Source: an uncultured cyanobacterium (GTDB lineage: Bacteria > Cyanobacteriota > Cyanobacteriia > Cyanobacteriales > Cyanobacteriaceae). From it: DNA of 64,000 nucleotides. The position numbers and the translations under genes are program-made. The stretch covers positions 1,248,001 through 1,312,000 of the forward strand of contig CAVQBA010000004.1 in assembly GCA_963710605.1 (NCBI GenBank). The letters are read 5' to 3'. How positions within the stretch are numbered: position 1 is the first letter of the stretch; every line of letters starts with the position of its first letter. This document shows, piece after piece, positions 7,744 to 22,119 of the stretch. Under the pieces are notes generated by a model that saw only the letters and a program-made list of their open reading frames with translations, had not been told where the DNA came from and did not search any database.

Positions 7744-7956
7744 GATCGACTCTTAAGATTGATATTTCTTTTGTTTAGATAACTTTTTATCATGATGTCG
7801 GCAGAATACCCTTATGTCCTTGACTTAGGGATGAATGCCGACAAATCAATTGAGGGCGATTAGCCCATCCCCTCATTAAAAAAAATAAGTGAGAAAATTC
7901 AATTTTGTCACTTATAATTAAAATGATTAAAAAATACTGAATAATCAGTAATTCTC

Positions 7957-10900
7957 ATGATATTAGCTTTTTGCTACAAATTAAAACCTAGTTTGTCCCA
8001 ACAAAGGACGATCGCTCATTGGATGGCAATGTTGAGGTCGCACTACAACTATTGCCTAGCCGATCGAATTGGTAGTTATGAAGAAGTTCGATCGCCTAAA
8101 CTAGGAGAATATTGCGACTTGCGAACTAAGGCAGTTTGTTCTCCCTTAAGCTGTGCCATCTCTAAAAATTCTAATATGGGCGAACCATTTAAAGGTAATG
8201 GTAAAAGACGTAATGCCTATGAAATGCAATCTTCAGAACTACCTATTCTTAAAAAGTCTCGCCCGTGGTATGCCACCATTAGCTCAACTGTCCTTCAACA
8301 AAATCTTCGACGATTGAATGATGCCTTTGAGGGGTTTTTCAATGGTAAAGGCTATCCTGCTTTTAAAAGGCGTAATAAGTTTAAAAGTTTTTCCTATGCC
8401 CCAAACCAAGTTCAGTTTAATCCGCAAAAAGTCTATTTGCCCAAAATAGGATGGATGCGGTTTTTCAAGTCTAGGGCTTTTCCTAATGGGTTCACTCCCA
8501 AGACTGTTACCGTTAGGCAAAAAGCCGACGGGTACTATATATCTGTACGCTTGGAAGACAAAACTGTCCCTGACTTTGAACCAATGGAAATCGATCGAGT
8601 AAAATCGATTGTCGGAATTGACTTAGGAGCAAGACCTCATAAGTTATGTTGTTTGTCCACAGGAGAAAATATCCCTAATCCCATGTTTGCCAAACAATCT
8701 AGTAAACGTCGAACATTACTACACCGTAGGGCTAGTCGTAAAGTGAAAGGCTCAAAAAATCAAAAAAAAGCCTACCAAAAATTAAGCAAATTTGAACTTG
8801 GAGTTATAAATCAAAGAAATGATTACCAGTGGAAAGTGGGACACCAGCTAGTACGCAAGTTTGATGCGATCGTCATGGAAGCCTTGCAAATTCAAAATAT
8901 GACTCGTCGATGCAAACCAAAACTAGATGAGCAAGGGAAATACCTTAAAAATGGACAATCGGCTAAACGGGCATTAAGCCGCTTAATCCAAGATTGTAGT
9001 TGGGAAAAACTAAAGGGCAAAATACGTCAAGTCGCTGAAAAGTGTGGGCGTATTTTTCTAGAAGTAGAACCTAAATTTTCCTCTCAAACCTGTTCGTCTT
9101 GTGGGTTCAAAAGTAAAGAAAACAGAAAGAAAGAATCATTTTTGTGCCTAAACTGTGGAATGTCTCATGATGCGGATACCAATGCGTCGCTCGTATTAGC
9201 AACTCGTGGAATTGAAAAACTTGGTATTAGTGAAAATACCCTATGGGGGGTCACCCCAAAAGTTACGGCTACCTCTGAAACCTCAGAGGTGACTAGAAAT
9301 AGTCAGGAGATCAAATCAGTGGCGTTGGCGACTGAGCCTAGCAACCCTCTACAACGTGCGATTCGTTCTTACGAAACCTTTATCTAAAGGTGGATGTGAG
9401 GCTTTCAGTTAAGTAACTCCCCCTGAGTTGTGCTCGCACTTTAATCCTTAACTGAATTAATAACTTGTAATTCATGGAGGTGAATCAGTATCCTAGAACA
9501 TAAGTCCTCCCGACCTTGTGCGGGTTGAAAAGCATACAGCGTCCCCACTCGTGAGGGTGGTGAGAAGTTTCCCCAATTTCTGAGGTGACAACTCAGAGGT
9601 TGAAGCGGGAGTAAAAGCGGATAGTAGCGATAATTGCTGAAAACGCCTCACCGCAAGCAAGTGTTTTATAAGCGACCCAGGACTGAGATAATCTCAGGGA
9701 AATGGACATCGTGGGGTAGATAATCAAAGTATCTATTGAAGCGTCTCAAAGGGTTAGCAAGGGATATAAGCTAGTGGATAATGCCACACCTTGCATTCCG
9801 AAATAACGGAAGAATAATAATATGTGGTTCTGTTGTAAAGTCACATCGCACAATTAATTCAAATAGGCGTAAAGGTACACCCTAAAGAACACAAATCAAC
9901 TGGTTGCACCGTCGCAACCAGCAATGGAATACAGGAACGAAGTAAACCAATATAAGCCCCAGAATAACTGGTAGGTCGTCAAACCGTATGCTTAAGTTGG
10001 GAAAGGATGGGTCAAGAAGCTAATGCCTAGCTCGAAAACACGAGCATTGCTGGAAAAGAGAAGGGGTAACGCCCAGGATACGCAGACGTGACTCGCAATA
10101 TATCAAATGCTAAAGGTGTCAGTAGTAGTAAATATGTCTAATACAGAATCGAATCAGAATACTGTGGAATGGGAAAATATCGATTGGCGTAAAGTCGAAA
10201 GATATGTCTTTAAGCTACAAAAACGCATTTACGCTGCTTCACGTCGTGGTGAAGTTAAGAAAGTACGCAAACTCCAAAGAACCCTTATGAGGTCTTGGTC
10301 TAATAAGGTACTTTCGGTCAGAAAGGTAACACAGGATAACAGAGGTAAGAAGACGGCAGGAGTGGATGGAGCAAAAGCACTTTCCCCAGAAGAACGTATG
10401 AACCTCGTAGGTCAACTAAAAATCACAGGAAAAAGTAAACCAACTCGGAGAGTATGGATACCGAAACAAAATAGTGGTGAAAGAAGACCATTGGGAATAC
10501 CAACTATATATGACCGAGCCTTACAAAACACTGTTAAATCAGCGATTGAGCCAGAATGGGAAGCTCGTTTTGAGTCAAACAGCTATGGTTTTAGACCAGG
10601 ACGGTCAGTCCACGATGCTATCAAGCAAATTAAAAATGCAATTCAAAAGAAACCAAAATACGTTTTGGATGCCGATATTGCAAAATGTTTTGATAAAATC
10701 AACCACTTATCCTTACTTAAGAAGCTCGGATACACGGGTAAAATCAGGCAACAAATTAAAGCCTGGTTAAAATCTGGGGTCATTGACCAAAAGGTTTTTA
10801 CTACTACGTCTGAGGGTACACCGCAAGGTGGGGTTATTAGCCCTTTACTCGCTAATATTGCCCTCCACGGGATAGAAATTATGTTAAAGGAGTTTGTCAA

Positions 10901-12130
10901 AACATTAGACTTGCGAAGAAAAGACTATCCAAGCAGTCAAATAAGTTGGCAGAAGAAAGTTCGTTCGCTGTCTTTTATAAGATACGCAGATGACTTTTTA
11001 CTAATACATGAGGACTTAAAAGTGGTCCACAGATGCAAAGAATTAATCTCTGAATGGTTATATGACATTGGACTAGAACTAAAACCATCAAAAACCAGAA
11101 TCACTCATATACTCAAACCAGAATTGAGCGAGGATAGAAAAGCTGGGTTTGATTTCCTCGGACATCATATACAGCAATATCCAATAAGTAAGTACCAAAG
11201 TGCGAAGCTAAATGGAAAACCACTAGGCTTTAGGACTCTCATAACACCAAGTAAGGAAGCACGTTTAAAGCATCAGAAAGATATGAGGGACATTGTGAGA
11301 AAACATAAAAACTCTCACCAAGCAAAATTAATCAAGAAGTTAAATGAGTGTATAAGAGGTTGGTGTAATTACTATGTCAACTCAGACGCTCAAACTGTTG
11401 GTGAATTTTCCAGACAAGACCACCTTGTATATCAAAAACTTAGAACTTGGGGCAAACGGAGGTGTAAAGGAAGCCTCAATAAAGCACATAAGAAATACTG
11501 GTGCAAAGTAGGTAATAATAACTGGGTATTTGCAGTCAATCAAGAGACGAAGAATCCCTTGAGGTTACTAACACATAGTGAATATAAATGTAGTAGTACA
11601 AACTATGTGAAAGTTAAAGATGACGTAAGCCCCTTCAACGGTGACTTGGTTTACTGGAGTACACGGATGGGCAAAAGCCCAGAGATGCCAAATCGAAAAG
11701 CGAAATTGCTTAAGATTCAAAAAGGGGTCTGCCCTTGGTGTCAACTTAGATTTCGTGAAGAAGATGTATTAGAAGTTGACCACATTCAAGCTCGTGCCTT
11801 GGGAGGAAAGGACACATACAAAAATCTTCAACTACTTCACGGTCATTGCCACGATGAAAAAACTGCCTTGGATATGAAGGAAATTTGGAAGCACAAGACT
11901 CTCAGTGATTTTTTAAAATCTAATAATATATTGGAAAATTACAATTGGTACTGGGATGAAAACGATATTCTAATAACCTTCAAGAAAATAAAGTGAAGTT
12001 CAATAACAAGATAGATATGTTGAGTAGCCGTGTGAAGCGAAAGTTTCACGCACGGTTTCGGAGGAGAGGAGTAGAGTGGAAACACTCACTTCGACTCTAA
12101 CTATCGTTGTTTGAGTGGATGGACGGCTGA
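7957..12130 (+). CDS. tnpB: RNA-guided endonuclease TnpB, intron-split: exon 1 7957-9355, exon 2 12102-12130 (spliced 475 aa ending NPLQLSLFEWMDG; unspliced ORF ends at 9387)
   Basis: N-terminal YKLKPS, RuvC residues GIDLG / IVMEAL / DADTNA, zinc ribbon CSSC..CLNC; the exon join stays in frame. Confidence 0.9.
9356..12101 (+). mobile_element. Group IIB (chloroplast-like class) intron, 2746 nt
   Basis: 5' GTGCGATTCGTT; domain V AGCCGTGTGAAGCGAAAGTTTCACGCACGGTTT at 12026-12058; domain VI ending CGACTCTAAC; EBS1 GTTGTA at 9832-9837 and EBS2 AGGGTT at 9750-9755. Confidence 0.93.
10107..11996 (+). CDS. ltrA: Group II intron reverse transcriptase/maturase with C-terminal HNH endonuclease
   Basis: RT0 GKKTAGVDG, RPLGIPTIYDR, GTPQGGVISPLLANIAL, RYADD, X domain RGWCNYY, CPWC..EVDHI..NLQLLHGHCH; start may be 10134. 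Confidence 0.95.
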   Translation: MLKVSVVVNMSNTESNQNTVEWENIDWRKVERYVFKLQKRIYAASRRGEVKKVRKLQRTLMRSWSNKVLSVRKVTQDNRGKKTAGVDGAKALSPEERMNLVGQLKITGKSKPTRRVWIPKQNSGERRPLGIPTIYDRALQNTVKSAIEPEWEARFESNSYGFRPGRSVHDAIKQIKNAIQKKPKYVLDADIAKCFDKINHLSLLKKLGYTGKIRQQIKAWLKSGVIDQKVFTTTSEGTPQGGVISPLLANIALHGIEIMLKEFVKTLDLRRKDYPSSQISWQKKVRSLSFIRYADDFLLIHEDLKVVHRCKELISEWLYDIGLELKPSKTRITHILKPELSEDRKAGFDFLGHHIQQYPISKYQSAKLNGKPLGFRTLITPSKEARLKHQKDMRDIVRKHKNSHQAKLIKKLNECIRGWCNYYVNSDAQTVGEFSRQDHLVYQKLRTWGKRRCKGSLNKAHKKYWCKVGNNNWVFAVNQETKNPLRLLTHSEYKCSSTNYVKVKDDVSPFNGDLVYWSTRMGKSPEMPNRKAKLLKIQKGVCPWCQLRFREEDVLEVDHIQARALGGKDTYKNLQLLHGHCHDEKTALDMKEIWKHKTLSDFLKSNNILENYNWYWDENDILITFKKIK

Positions 12131-12349
12131 GGTAATTGGCTGTCAGAATTCCCATTGTCTAAGGCGATAGCCGTACGGTGGGGTTCTTCAACTAATCATA
12201 ATATTTACAAGACACGATCGATTTAATAATTGTTCCGAAAGCTTAATTAATTCTCTTTTTCTCATCGTATTACTTTTATTGATTACATTAAATTGTTCTG
12301 TAATCTTTCTTTAAGAGATGGTAGTATTTTTAGAATATCGATCGTTTTA

Positions 12350-13084
12350 CTATTTTGCTCTTACTAAACTTGGTTTTTGTGTCCAAAAATGTAACAAGTT
12401 TTCGCTAATTAACTCAGGTTGAAAATAATGAAAAAAGTGATCTCCAGTTGGGCATTGCCACAACCTATCTTCTGGTTTGAGTTTTGATTGCCATTTTTGC
12501 ATTTCACTCCAAGGTACAATTTTATCTTCAATACATCCTGCAATCATTAAGGGGCATTGAATAAAATCGATCGCACTTTTGGAATTACTTTGGTATAGTG
12601 AATGATTAGATAAAGAATAAGGGATTGCTTTTTCTAAAATTTTGATAAATGCAAGACGATAATGATGGCTATGACAACCAAATAAATATTTAGCTACATG
12701 GGCTAAAACTATCTCTTGACTACAATGCCAATTGTTTCGCCAAAAATAATAATAACTAAGCCAATCTACGGCTAAATTTGTACCTACTCCTAAAAGAGTT
12801 AGCGACTTTACTTTTTCGGGATATTTTTGGGCATAAAGTAAGCCTAGCAAACCACAAGTACTATGACCGACTAAATGAATTGGTTTATTTAATAAACTCA
12901 AATAATCATTTAATAAATAAACCGCTTGCTCAATTGATGTGCCTTCGTCTTCTGTTTGTTCATATTCCCAATGAGCAATATCGACAGATTTTGATAAATA
13001 TTGAATTGCCGGTAAATTAAAGCGACGCAAGTAAGGATTTGTGTTTAACCAAAGAACTTCTGGATTTTTGAACATCTTTCTCAA
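12350..13084 (-). CDS. Alpha/beta hydrolase fold protein
   Basis: IHLVGHSTCG nucleophile elbow; GDHFFH. Confidence 0.8.
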   Translation of the reverse strand: MRKMFKNPEVLWLNTNPYLRRFNLPAIQYLSKSVDIAHWEYEQTEDEGTSIEQAVYLLNDYLSLLNKPIHLVGHSTCGLLGLLYAQKYPEKVKSLTLLGVGTNLAVDWLSYYYFWRNNWHCSQEIVLAHVAKYLFGCHSHHYRLAFIKILEKAIPYSLSNHSLYQSNSKSAIDFIQCPLMIAGCIEDKIVPWSEMQKWQSKLKPEDRLWQCPTGDHFFHYFQPELISENLLHFWTQKPSLVRAK

Positions 13085-20928: not shown

Positions 20929-22119
20929 CTAATCCCGAATCTGTACAGGCATAATCAAGTAAGTCATTTGTAAACCACTTAGGGGAGTGATAATAACGGG
21001 TTGAGTTGGATTATTAAAATTAAATTTAATCTCATTAGCCGATATTGCTTTCAAGCCATCCATCAAATAGCGAATATTAAAACCAATCTCAAAATCATCA
21101 CCAATAATTTCTGCTTCAATTGATTCGGTTGCATTACCTAATTCTTTGGCTTCTACAGAAACAACCACTTGTTTATCTTCGGTATTTAAGTTAAATTTAA
21201 CTAAGTTATTTTTTTGATCAGTTAAAACCGAAACTCTCTCTAAACTATCAATTAAAGTTCTACGCTCTATAACCATCGATCGTTCAAACTCTTGAGGAAT
21301 TAATTGATTATAATTAGGATAAGCACCATCTAACTTACGACTAGTCAAATGCTGAGTGCCTAACTCAAAAACAACTTGCCCTTCATCTACATATAAAGCA
21401 ATCTCATTTTCTTCCTTACTCATTGTCATCATTTTTTCTAATTCCCTCAAAGCACGTGCGGGAATCGTGATGGTAAAATTTTGCTCGGTAGTAGCAGTTG
21501 GTTTCTGGTTTTGCTCATCATCATCACCATCACCATCATCCTCATTTTGCTCACTAGTTTTTACCACCGCTAAACGATGCCCGTCGGTGGCGGCAAATTC
21601 CAAATCATCCATATCACGGGTTAGGTGTATTCCTGTTAATATTTGCTTCGTCTCATCACTACTTGCAGCAAATAAAGAACTTTTTAAACCTTCAGATAAA
21701 GCAGGGATACTTAATAATAATGCTTCATCTTTTTCGACGATAGGTAACTCGGGATATTCATCAGCAATTACTCCTCTTAACTGAAATTTGCCTGATAATG
21801 AATTTAAAGTTACGATCGGGTTATCTGCTAATTTTTCTTCATCATAATCTAAAGCGACTTGCCCTTCAGGTAAACGAGTGACAATATCATTAAAAAGTTT
21901 GGCAGGTAAAGTTATCACTCCTCCTTCTTCAACCTCAGCACTGAAAGTTGTCCGCATACCCAAACTTAAATCGAATCCGGTAAGGGTAACTAAGTTTTTG
22001 TCTTCGTCGGCTATCAATAATACGTTGGCTAAAATTGGATGTGTAGGGCGAGAAGGTACAGCACGAATTATTAATGATAAGTTATTGTTAAGATCTATTT
22101 GCGAACAAACTATTTTCAC
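20929..22119 (-). CDS. dnaN: DNA polymerase III beta sliding clamp
   Basis: PTHPILANVL, AATDGHRLA, YPNY, GFNIRYL, YLIMPVQ. Confidence 0.97.
   Translation of the reverse strand: MKIVCSQIDLNNNLSLIIRAVPSRPTHPILANVLLIADEDKNLVTLTGFDLSLGMRTTFSAEVEEGGVITLPAKLFNDIVTRLPEGQVALDYDEEKLADNPIVTLNSLSGKFQLRGVIADEYPELPIVEKDEALLLSIPALSEGLKSSLFAASSDETKQILTGIHLTRDMDDLEFAATDGHRLAVVKTSEQNEDDGDGDDDEQNQKPTATTEQNFTITIPARALRELEKMMTMSKEENEIALYVDEGQVVFELGTQHLTSRKLDGAYPNYNQLIPQEFERSMVIERRTLIDSLERVSVLTDQKNNLVKFNLNTEDKQVVVSVEAKELGNATESIEAEIIGDDFEIGFNIRYLMDGLKAISANEIKFNFNNPTQPVIITPLSGLQMTYLIMPVQIRD

Follow-up and report, generated by a model that had tools for sequence, protein, structure and literature searches.

We analysed a 64,000-nucleotide (nt) stretch of DNA, referred to here as the window, from an uncultured cyanobacterium of the family Cyanobacteriaceae (assembly GCA_963710605.1, contig CAVQBA010000004.1, positions 1,248,001 to 1,312,000), in which a tnpB gene of the IS200/IS605 type is interrupted close to its 3' end by a group II intron. 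Joining the exons across this intron gives TnpB the C-terminus typical of its family, including the pentapeptide QLSLF, a consensus match to motifs that bind the beta sliding clamp, DnaN. We propose that the last ~75 codons of this stand-alone tnpB would double as the scaffold of a guide (omega) RNA, and that a mobile group II intron encoding a reverse transcriptase-maturase-HNH protein retrohomed into the gene, its exon-binding sites EBS2 and EBS1 pairing with 13 nt (AACCCT-C-TACAAC), so that it now interrupts a Leu codon where one of the scaffold hairpins borders on its apical loop. Splicing would rejoin the exons and restore both the hairpin and the tail ...EPxNPxQLxLFEW..., in which QLxLF is most likely a DnaN-binding motif on a flexible C-terminal peptide. 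Such a tail may tether a cyanobacterial clade of TnpB proteins to clamps left on newly replicated DNA, and a copy that failed to splice would be inactive, its protein lacking the tail and its scaffold being cut in two. The probability of this explanation as a whole, comprising a scaffold-overlapping tnpB, an incidental intron and a splicing-restored hairpin and clamp-binding tail, is in our estimate roughly 0.6.

The intron spans positions 9356..12101 of the window (2746 nt; this and all further features are on the plus strand unless stated otherwise), starting with GTGCG and ending in ...CTCTAAC. Because GTGCG begins at 9356, exon 1 (7957..9355; 466 codons and the first base of a Leu codon) ends at C9355, and the insertion point splits the first Leu codon of QLSLF after its first base. 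Domains V and VI (12023..12101) matched Rfam RF00029 over its entire length (model positions 1-77 of 77; 53 bits, gathering threshold 40; E 1.2e-08), with the match ending exactly at 12101 (...CUCUAAC). The intron encodes a protein with reverse transcriptase, maturase and HNH endonuclease regions (10107..11996; 629 aa from the first listed start codon), identified through the Pfam domains RVT_N (3.9e-35), RVT_1 (1.3e-40), GIIM (1.9e-12) and HNH (1.6e-11).

Pairing between the intron and its 5' exon is consistent with these limits. EBS1 (GTTGTA, 9832..9837) is complementary to the intron-binding site IBS1 (TACAAC, 9350-9355, the last six exon bases) and EBS2 (AGGGTT, 9750..9755) to IBS2 (AACCCT, 9343-9348), a total of 6+6 bases; the 13-nt IBS2-IBS1 segment (9343..9355) encodes N-P-L-Q plus the C of the Leu codon and doubles as the 5' strand of the scaffold hairpin described below. 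Introns related to that of the window, found at homologous loci (labelled L), carry different bases at the aligned positions, each matching its own 5' exon: at EBS1, TGAAAA in L090 (exon end TTTTCA) and GAAAGA in L100 (exon end TCTTTC); at EBS2, GCATCC in L090 (exon GGATGC) and GAAGCG in L155 (exon CGCTTC). The alignment of the L155 intron decays after ~417 nt and its contig ends, and its EBS1 was left unplaced. Another EBS2 candidate, GAGGGT at 9553-9558, was ruled out, as it sits in a stem-loop with covarying arms (CTCTCG/CGAGAG in L155, TCTAC/GTAGA in L090) and the L155 and L090 introns have no exon complementarity at that place.

Exon 2 (12102-12130) reads TA TCG TTG TTT GAG TGG ATG GAC GGC TGA, encoding (L)SLFEWMDG with the stop codon TGA at 12128-12130. 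The joined exons thus read NPLQ-LSLFEWMDG (longer reading of the tail, ...NPLQLSLFEWMDG, then stop), with the five QLSLF codons at 9352-9354, 9355+12102-12103, 12104-12106, 12107-12109 and 12110-12112. In a MAFFT alignment with uninterrupted homologues the joined window row was gap-free across the junction (compare L026, ...CCTCTGCAACTTTCGTTGTTTGAGTGGATGAAT), and the protein tails of relatives read ...EPTNPLQLSLFEWMNG... Splicing to a 3' site behind the AT at 12104 would give QPLFEW and was ruled out: RF00029 stops at 12101, and the homologues align without gaps only with 12101. Exon alignment, homologue protein tails and the EBS/IBS fit are three independent lines on which the predicted intron boundaries are real. 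The original prediction, made from the letters of the window, that the unspliced protein ends NPLQ-RAIRSYETFI and the joined one NPLQ-LSLFEWMDG, with the intron inside a Leu codon, was correct to the base. Its further argument, that a consensus appearing across the junction supports the boundaries, also held, as QL.LF is typical of the family and the joined exons are colinear with uninterrupted homologues.

Unspliced, the tnpB open reading frame (ORF) runs from 7957 to 9387 (476 codons) and ends ...EPSNPLQ-RAIRSYETFI; on the boundaries given above this 476-aa ORF call is an unspliced artefact, the real product being predicted to end QLSLFEWMDG. The ORF contains the Pfam domains HTH_OrfB_IS605, OrfB_IS605 and Cas12f1-like_TNB, and the catalytic D, E, D residues (D222, E308 and D405/D407) occupy invariant columns in alignment A1, of which the window TnpB is the first row. 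No ORF for a Y1 transposase (tnpA) was detected upstream of tnpB. From its sequence, the gene is a stand-alone IS200/IS605-type (IS1341-like) tnpB, coding for a predicted RNA-guided nuclease. The element is single-copy in its genome, where the closest TnpB relative is 36% identical, too distant for any own-genome paralogue to serve as an intron-less copy of the gene; that comparison was ruled out.

The C-terminal motif is conserved well beyond this copy. Among 119 listed protein relatives (labelled P; 50-64% identity, all cyanobacterial where named), 92 carry QL.LF within their last 75 residues, although such sequence counts are not counts of independent events. The spliced reading, Q-L-S-L-F, agrees with the clamp-motif consensus Q-L-S-L-F/L, and in these 92 of 119 homologues Q1, L2, L4 and F5 are kept, whilst position 3 is free (S46 N15 T9 I5 C4 L4 K2 V2 A2 E2 R1). 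Alignment of close homologues, which the original prediction had put forward as its first check, thereby identified QLSLF as family-typical. In homologue tails the motif is preceded by a sequence-variable linker, and in the joined window protein it lies 8 residues from the C-terminus. The flanks of the pentapeptide are conserved too, with EP.NP before and E/D-W after it (family pattern EPxNPxQLxLFEW). A second TnpB subfamily shares the motif: an own-genome paralogue (L006; 405 aa, 34% identical) ends ...YTQLSLF, the sole motif-ending ORF among the 20 own-genome paralogue ORF rows examined, and QL.[LI]F occurs in the last 40 residues of 79 of the 119 listed relatives of this paralogue, being the very last residues in 33.

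The region encoding the tail also behaves like part of an RNA. We fetched the DNA of relatives (80 loci from genomes and 80 from metagenomes) and aligned 34 distinct uninterrupted tails (alignment A2), which fold into four helices with 32 pairs. Standard pairs filled 96.8% of the cells of this structure compared with 79.8% in column shuffles (0 of 500 reached the observed value), and pairing fell to 33-50% when the partner strand was slid by 1-3 columns. Both sides had changed in 21 of the 32 pairs, with many G-U pairs: helices 1 and 2 covary, helix 3 (columns 162-171 with 178-189) is paired in 94.7% of cells with 4 pairs changed on both sides, and helix 4 is paired in 99.3% of cells with 8 of 9 pairs so changed. 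Because four helices covary and homology ends after ...CTTCAA, we read the last ~220 nt of the gene together with the right end as a predicted TnpB guide-RNA (omegaRNA) scaffold, a structured RNA that would overlap the tnpB 3' end and stop at the right end of the element; an Rfam scan of it matched no family.

In the window, the upstream part of the scaffold lies within the tnpB ORF (9240..9342, an approximate 5' limit placed by eye), where the text ctatggggggtcaccccaaaagttacgg resembles, again by eye, the A2 consensus CTACTGGGAGTCCCnCAGAAAGTTACG around helix 1. The remainder, with the right end, covers 12131..12191, a boundary set by alignment decay: homology between loci stops just past ...GGGGTTCTTCAA (12180-12191), the conserved ...CTTCAA being 12186-12191. 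The two strands of helix 3 are the motif codons themselves, AAC CCT CNN CAR facing YTG TTT GAG TGG, and the loop between them consists of Leu1 and the variable codon. Read by hand onto helix 3, the window's 3' strand (TTG TTT GAG TGG, 12107..12118) pairs with 9345-9354 in the joined exons, and the intron sits at the 5' edge of the apical loop. Other subgroups also have the motif at a hairpin apex, in a different pairing register: the Gln codon is in the loop in L058/L155, the loop AAUU runs across Gln/Leu1 in L177, and the stem is ACUC/GAGU in L006. In the last of these (L006:1378-2595, own-genome region C4:1129623-1130627), QLSLF stands at the apex of a small hairpin, ACUC-AACU-GAGU.

Two further features lie around tnpB. 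A 31-nt near-perfect inverted self-match (90%; 7885-7915), ~45 nt upstream of the tnpB start codon, could be the subterminal hairpin of its left end. Directly downstream, a 244-aa ORF lies on the minus strand (12350-13084), and the right end and presumed guide region (from 12192) fall in the intergenic space before it.

As the same nucleotides appear to be read both as peptide and as RNA, we examined codon usage with a census based on flanking anchors only, ignoring the 15 motif nt; this superseded a census with a peptide regular expression, dropped as circular for the codon test. The anchors gave 50 matches, with 40 contexts that are unique; QLxLF is encoded in every one of these 40 (phylogeny uncorrected), and each change in the Q, L, L and F codons is synonymous. 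Gln is encoded by CAA (22) or CAG (18), Leu2 by TTG (23), CTG (15) or CTT (2) and Phe by TTT (32) or TTC (8). Leu1, unpaired in the loop, uses five codons (TTA19 CTT12 TTG5 CTA3 CTG1) and never TTY, such that a third-base pyrimidine occurs in none of the 24 T-starting codons but in 12 of the 16 C-starting ones (Fisher 3e-7, not corrected for relatedness). On these sequences the pattern has the shape of the genetic code and not that of an RNA loop, and the loop codon after Leu1 varies freely (10 different codons). Compensation in helix 3 proceeds only via synonymous sites in the Q, L2 and F codons, whilst helices 2 and 4 compensate via amino-acid changes and the stop codon shifts (…IGC, …SESPTIARRV). 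The same residues are kept under the different pairings of the more distant subgroups, a pattern that suggests selection at the peptide level; the census suggests that QLxLF is under purifying selection as a peptide, beyond the RNA constraint, its conservation being dual.

The proposed partner is encoded in the same window. A gene for DnaN lies at 20929..22119, as originally predicted, on the minus strand (396 aa, all three DNA_pol3_beta domains). We modelled this DnaN together with a tail segment (residues 433-478) taken from P0004, a homologue 63% identical to the window TnpB (tail ...EPTNPLQLSLFEWMNGRVIGC; alignment A3). The model scored 0.68 (three runs: 0.70, 0.68 and 0.67) and the best of three controls 0.17; the score mark is one reached by 116 of 157 solved complexes and by 2 of 215 mismatched pairs. 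Runs agreed in at least 40% of contacts, and the partner tail had a pLDDT of 43-47 in the complex. Confident contacts involved N461-F468 (NPLQLSLF) and W470 of the tail, and T178-L183 (TDGHRL), 346-348, 372-374 and 388-395 (LIMPVQIR) of DnaN, segments which we take to form the walls of the pocket that receives peptides between domains II and III in bacterial clamps. The peptide-clamp prediction that the original note had proposed for both isoforms was thus run on a homologue tail alone, and it placed that tail in the pocket of the window DnaN, well above the controls. From the sequence consensus and this structural model we infer that the tail binds the clamp, and the purpose given to such binding is inferred likewise.

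Several observations weigh against a clamp-binding role for the tail. QL.LF is missing from 27 of the 119 homologues; among these 27 some proteins are truncated or stop early and others deviate slightly (QLIWF, QPQLF, PLSLF, QLGLS), and in six of the 27 (P0027, P0047, P0055, P0086, P0070, P0091) a Pro/Gly-rich insert replaces the motif; 40 of the 119 listed members of the L006 subfamily lack it as well. At the nucleotide level, the third base of Gln and the first base of Leu2 form A-T 21, G-C 16, G-T 2 and A-C 1 pairs in the 40 contexts (in the 34 rows of A2 they covary as A-U 19, G-C 14, other 1), and the second base of the preceding codon covaries with the third base of Phe (A-T 20, G-C 7, G-T 6, T-T 6, A-C 1). 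The motif nucleotides are, by this covariation, a predicted RNA helix under selection, and part of their conservation can be accounted for without any function of the peptide. The codon pattern is absent from twelve loci that have the anchors, although most of these still form a hairpin there: GC-rich palindromes take the place of the apex in L049/L108, L128, L157/L035, L079 and L102, L036 has a frameshift, L104 and L044 have deletions and L110 has a stop (the match in L178 is a different sequence). For at least some copies, active or not, the peptide is dispensable for persistence. As for the model, the complex resembles clamp-peptide complexes already solved, and its pass may reflect memory of them; the modelled tail comes from a homologue and not from this copy's spliced tail, and the fold of the partner is uncertain, so that the model shows a likeness and no proof of binding. 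The literature searched, mostly at the level of abstracts, holds no binding experiment linking any IS605-type TnpB to DnaN or another sliding clamp.

The palindromes themselves lie at L049:2862-2925, L108:1564-1625, L128:1257-1320, L157:1267-1330, L035:1584-1645, L079:2911-2975 and L102:2055-2110, with sequences such as ...GATCCCCCCTGCCCCCCTTAGTAAGGGGGGAGCAAGGGGGGATGA..., and the lower stem is retained around them. Four protein variants with a palindrome regain the frame at ...EW.NG..., with tails such as NPIPPAPLSKGGARGDEW. These apex replacements resemble either a short palindromic element or an exchange of hairpins with a preference for the QLSLF loop.

These observations allow QLxLF to be seen as an RNA by-product, merely encoded by a conserved hairpin (…CTC.CAR / YTGTTTGAG…) in a tail with neither protein function nor DnaN binding. 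Helix 3 does covary, the motif codons stand at the hairpin apex in every subgroup folded, and the sequence downstream follows the RNA and not the peptide, its stop codons moving. Moreover, P0027, P0047, P0055 and P0086, apparently full-length, have a GC-rich palindrome in place of the apex; they no longer encode QLSLF, yet their reading frame is intact beyond it. A helix by itself, however, would not hold the four residues in all 40 contexts by synonymous change only, with Leu1 varying as the code allows; nor would it keep the residues constant where the register differs between subgroups, when other scaffold helices tolerate non-synonymous compensatory change. The exact match to the clamp consensus, on the terminal tail of two subfamilies, also argues for a peptide function, and we consider the by-product account unlikely. 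The original prediction had opposed conserved nucleotides to a conserved frame and peptide; the nucleotides proved to be conserved, through the covarying hairpin, and frame and peptide are kept too.

A conserved peptide might also serve another purpose, with EPxNPxQLxLFEW contacting TnpB itself, the guide RNA or some host factor other than DnaN. Conservation does exceed the pentapeptide, to EP.NP before it and E/D-W after it, clamp-like motifs are short and arise by chance, and the lack of experiments in the searched literature noted above applies here equally. Against this, the flanking positions belong to the base-paired stretch of the hairpin and differ from one subgroup to the next (NKNEQLLLFDFDLWS, EYAFQLSLFNQEN, ...TQLSLF then stop), where only QLxLF persists, and the model puts precisely the QLxLF residues into the DnaN pocket, far above controls. 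Another job for the peptide is accordingly, in our judgement, decidedly unlikely. Clamp binding by the tail is a plausible reading that this analysis strengthens, somewhat probable in our view and not new in kind.

The original prediction had further suggested that splicing switches between clamp-binding and non-binding isoforms, and the distribution of the intron speaks against this. It is the sole full-length copy in its genome (blastn), all other matches, on C2, C5 and C6, being partial (65-83% identity). Those segments (C2:4500-8534, C5:12517-27856 and C6:366051-366680) are further group II intron- or RT-like sequences 65-83% identical to parts of the window intron, clustered on C2 and C5. 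Searching the 160 fetched loci with the intron-encoded protein (tblastn) and the intron ends (blastn) recovered related introns only in L086, L090, L100 and L155, each elsewhere in or near tnpB: at about L086:1268-2155; in L090 (2091 onward) following ...IGWMRF; in L100 (2155 onward) within an IDLG motif; and in L155 (2058-2583) within the right end, its start lying 78 nt past the Gln codon. They share the 5' sequence GTGCGATTCGTT with the window intron, encode proteins 58-74% identical to its own and reside in same-family tnpB genes from other cyanobacteria. The intron lineage thus seems to colonise tnpB elements repeatedly, at four different positions. One protein known only as a protein sequence (P0049, 464 aa) has a tail ending ...EPSNPLCDPF, which could correspond to an exon end running into GTGCGA... 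and perhaps to a further intron only a few bases away from that of the window.

At the window's own site, no intron was found in any other fetched locus covering it (82 regular-expression matches and 12 anchor-bearing variants). Because the site is free of introns in these loci and the related introns lie elsewhere, we read the window intron as an incidental, private retrohoming event, apparently with no built-in switch. The intron also splits the predicted scaffold hairpin ~90 nt before the scaffold 3' end. An unspliced transcript would have neither tail nor intact guide RNA, and the genome has no second copy of the element; the unspliced form is therefore expected to be inactive, and we regard its product as a by-product without function, not as an alternative isoform that works. 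An intron selected for regulation, by which the cell toggles between a spliced, clamp-binding TnpB and an unspliced, clamp-blind one, is favoured by architecture only: without splicing the reading frame continues through another 10 codons, to RAIRSYETFI, and a tail-less protein could be made. The conserved insertion site to be expected of a regulated splicing device was not seen in the fetched loci, the related introns occupy other places in their tnpB genes, the element is single-copy, and the split scaffold would leave the unspliced form without a guide. We regard such a switch as highly improbable, and the suggestion is not upheld.

An incidental intron in a scaffold-overlapping tnpB has partial parallels in known systems. 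In TnpB/omegaRNA (OMEGA) elements the 3' end of tnpB also forms part of the guide-RNA scaffold, as is predicted here from the sequence for the last ~220 nt of the gene and the right end, with covarying helices and an end at ...CTTCAA. IStrons are group I introns fused with an IS605-type tnpB, in which intron and guide RNA overlap. Like them, the window has an intron and a predicted TnpB guide RNA that share sequence, which would link splicing to guide-RNA integrity; unlike them, it has a group II retro-intron with its own reverse transcriptase, a secondary insertion into the hairpin loop of one copy and no conserved composite. No group II intron within the guide-RNA scaffold of a TnpB, and no dual coding of a peptide and a hairpin like that seen here, is described in the literature searched, mostly at abstract level.

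The clamp-binding part of our explanation has closer precedents. The clamp-motif consensus is Q-L-S-L-F/L, with Q1 and L4 most conserved and the motif usually on a flexible C-terminal peptide (PMC3971601), and in the same study Gomez, Diaz-Maldonado, Gonzalez-Tortuero and Lopez de Saro (2014) listed OrfB (TnpB) proteins from cyanobacterial IS200/IS605 elements as having putative C-terminal beta-clamp motifs, which in TnpB are, according to that study, restricted to Cyanobacteria. So far as the consulted parts of PMC3971601 go, these proteins are of the same kind and phylum as the window TnpB and have the same near-C-terminal pentapeptide, and only E. coli transposase peptides, not OrfB, were tested there. 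Its example tails (...QLSLFDPTLFGG then stop, ...QLNLFDLVKS..., ...QLSIFDLLK then stop) include, in the last type, the L006 subfamily; the window's 476-aa family (EPxNPxQLxLFEW) differs from these examples, a comparison made with one passage of the table. Relative to the same parts of that work, the overlap with a guide-RNA hairpin and the intron of the window locus are new. Tn7 TnsE is an experimentally supported clamp-binding transposition protein (cited in PMC3971601), IS608 TnpA, not TnpB, interacts with DnaN in a two-hybrid assay (PMC5027513), and a group II intron-encoded protein has been associated with the clamp (PMC6698660), so far as the consulted parts of these sources report. In each case a protein of a mobile element uses the replisome clamp to find replicating DNA, as the window candidate may do likewise; the candidate is an RNA-guided nuclease, TnpB, whose binding is predicted, in contrast to transposases with experimental support.

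For annotation, the locus carries the lesson that calling an ORF across an intron gives a wrong TnpB C-terminus (RAIRSYETFI as opposed to QLSLFEWMDG). It also offers a useful test set, comprising a native DnaN, tails with a free third position and natural variants in which the hairpin is kept and the peptide lost, and it is a case of one sequence that would be under both peptide and RNA-structure selection, a 15-nt stretch being, if this is true, read twice. TnpB, the ancestor of Cas12, is thought to aid transposon survival by cutting the empty site, which is then repaired from the sister copy. Such repair needs a sister copy and therefore works only just behind the replication fork, and a clamp-docking tail, if true, would offer a simple means of physically coupling TnpB to replication. 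We hold it about evenly balanced that a cyanobacterial TnpB clade of at least two subfamilies is tethered to the clamp through a C-terminal QLxLF, which would couple RNA-guided cutting and homing to the passage of the fork by means of a peptide dual-coded in the apex of a guide-RNA hairpin.

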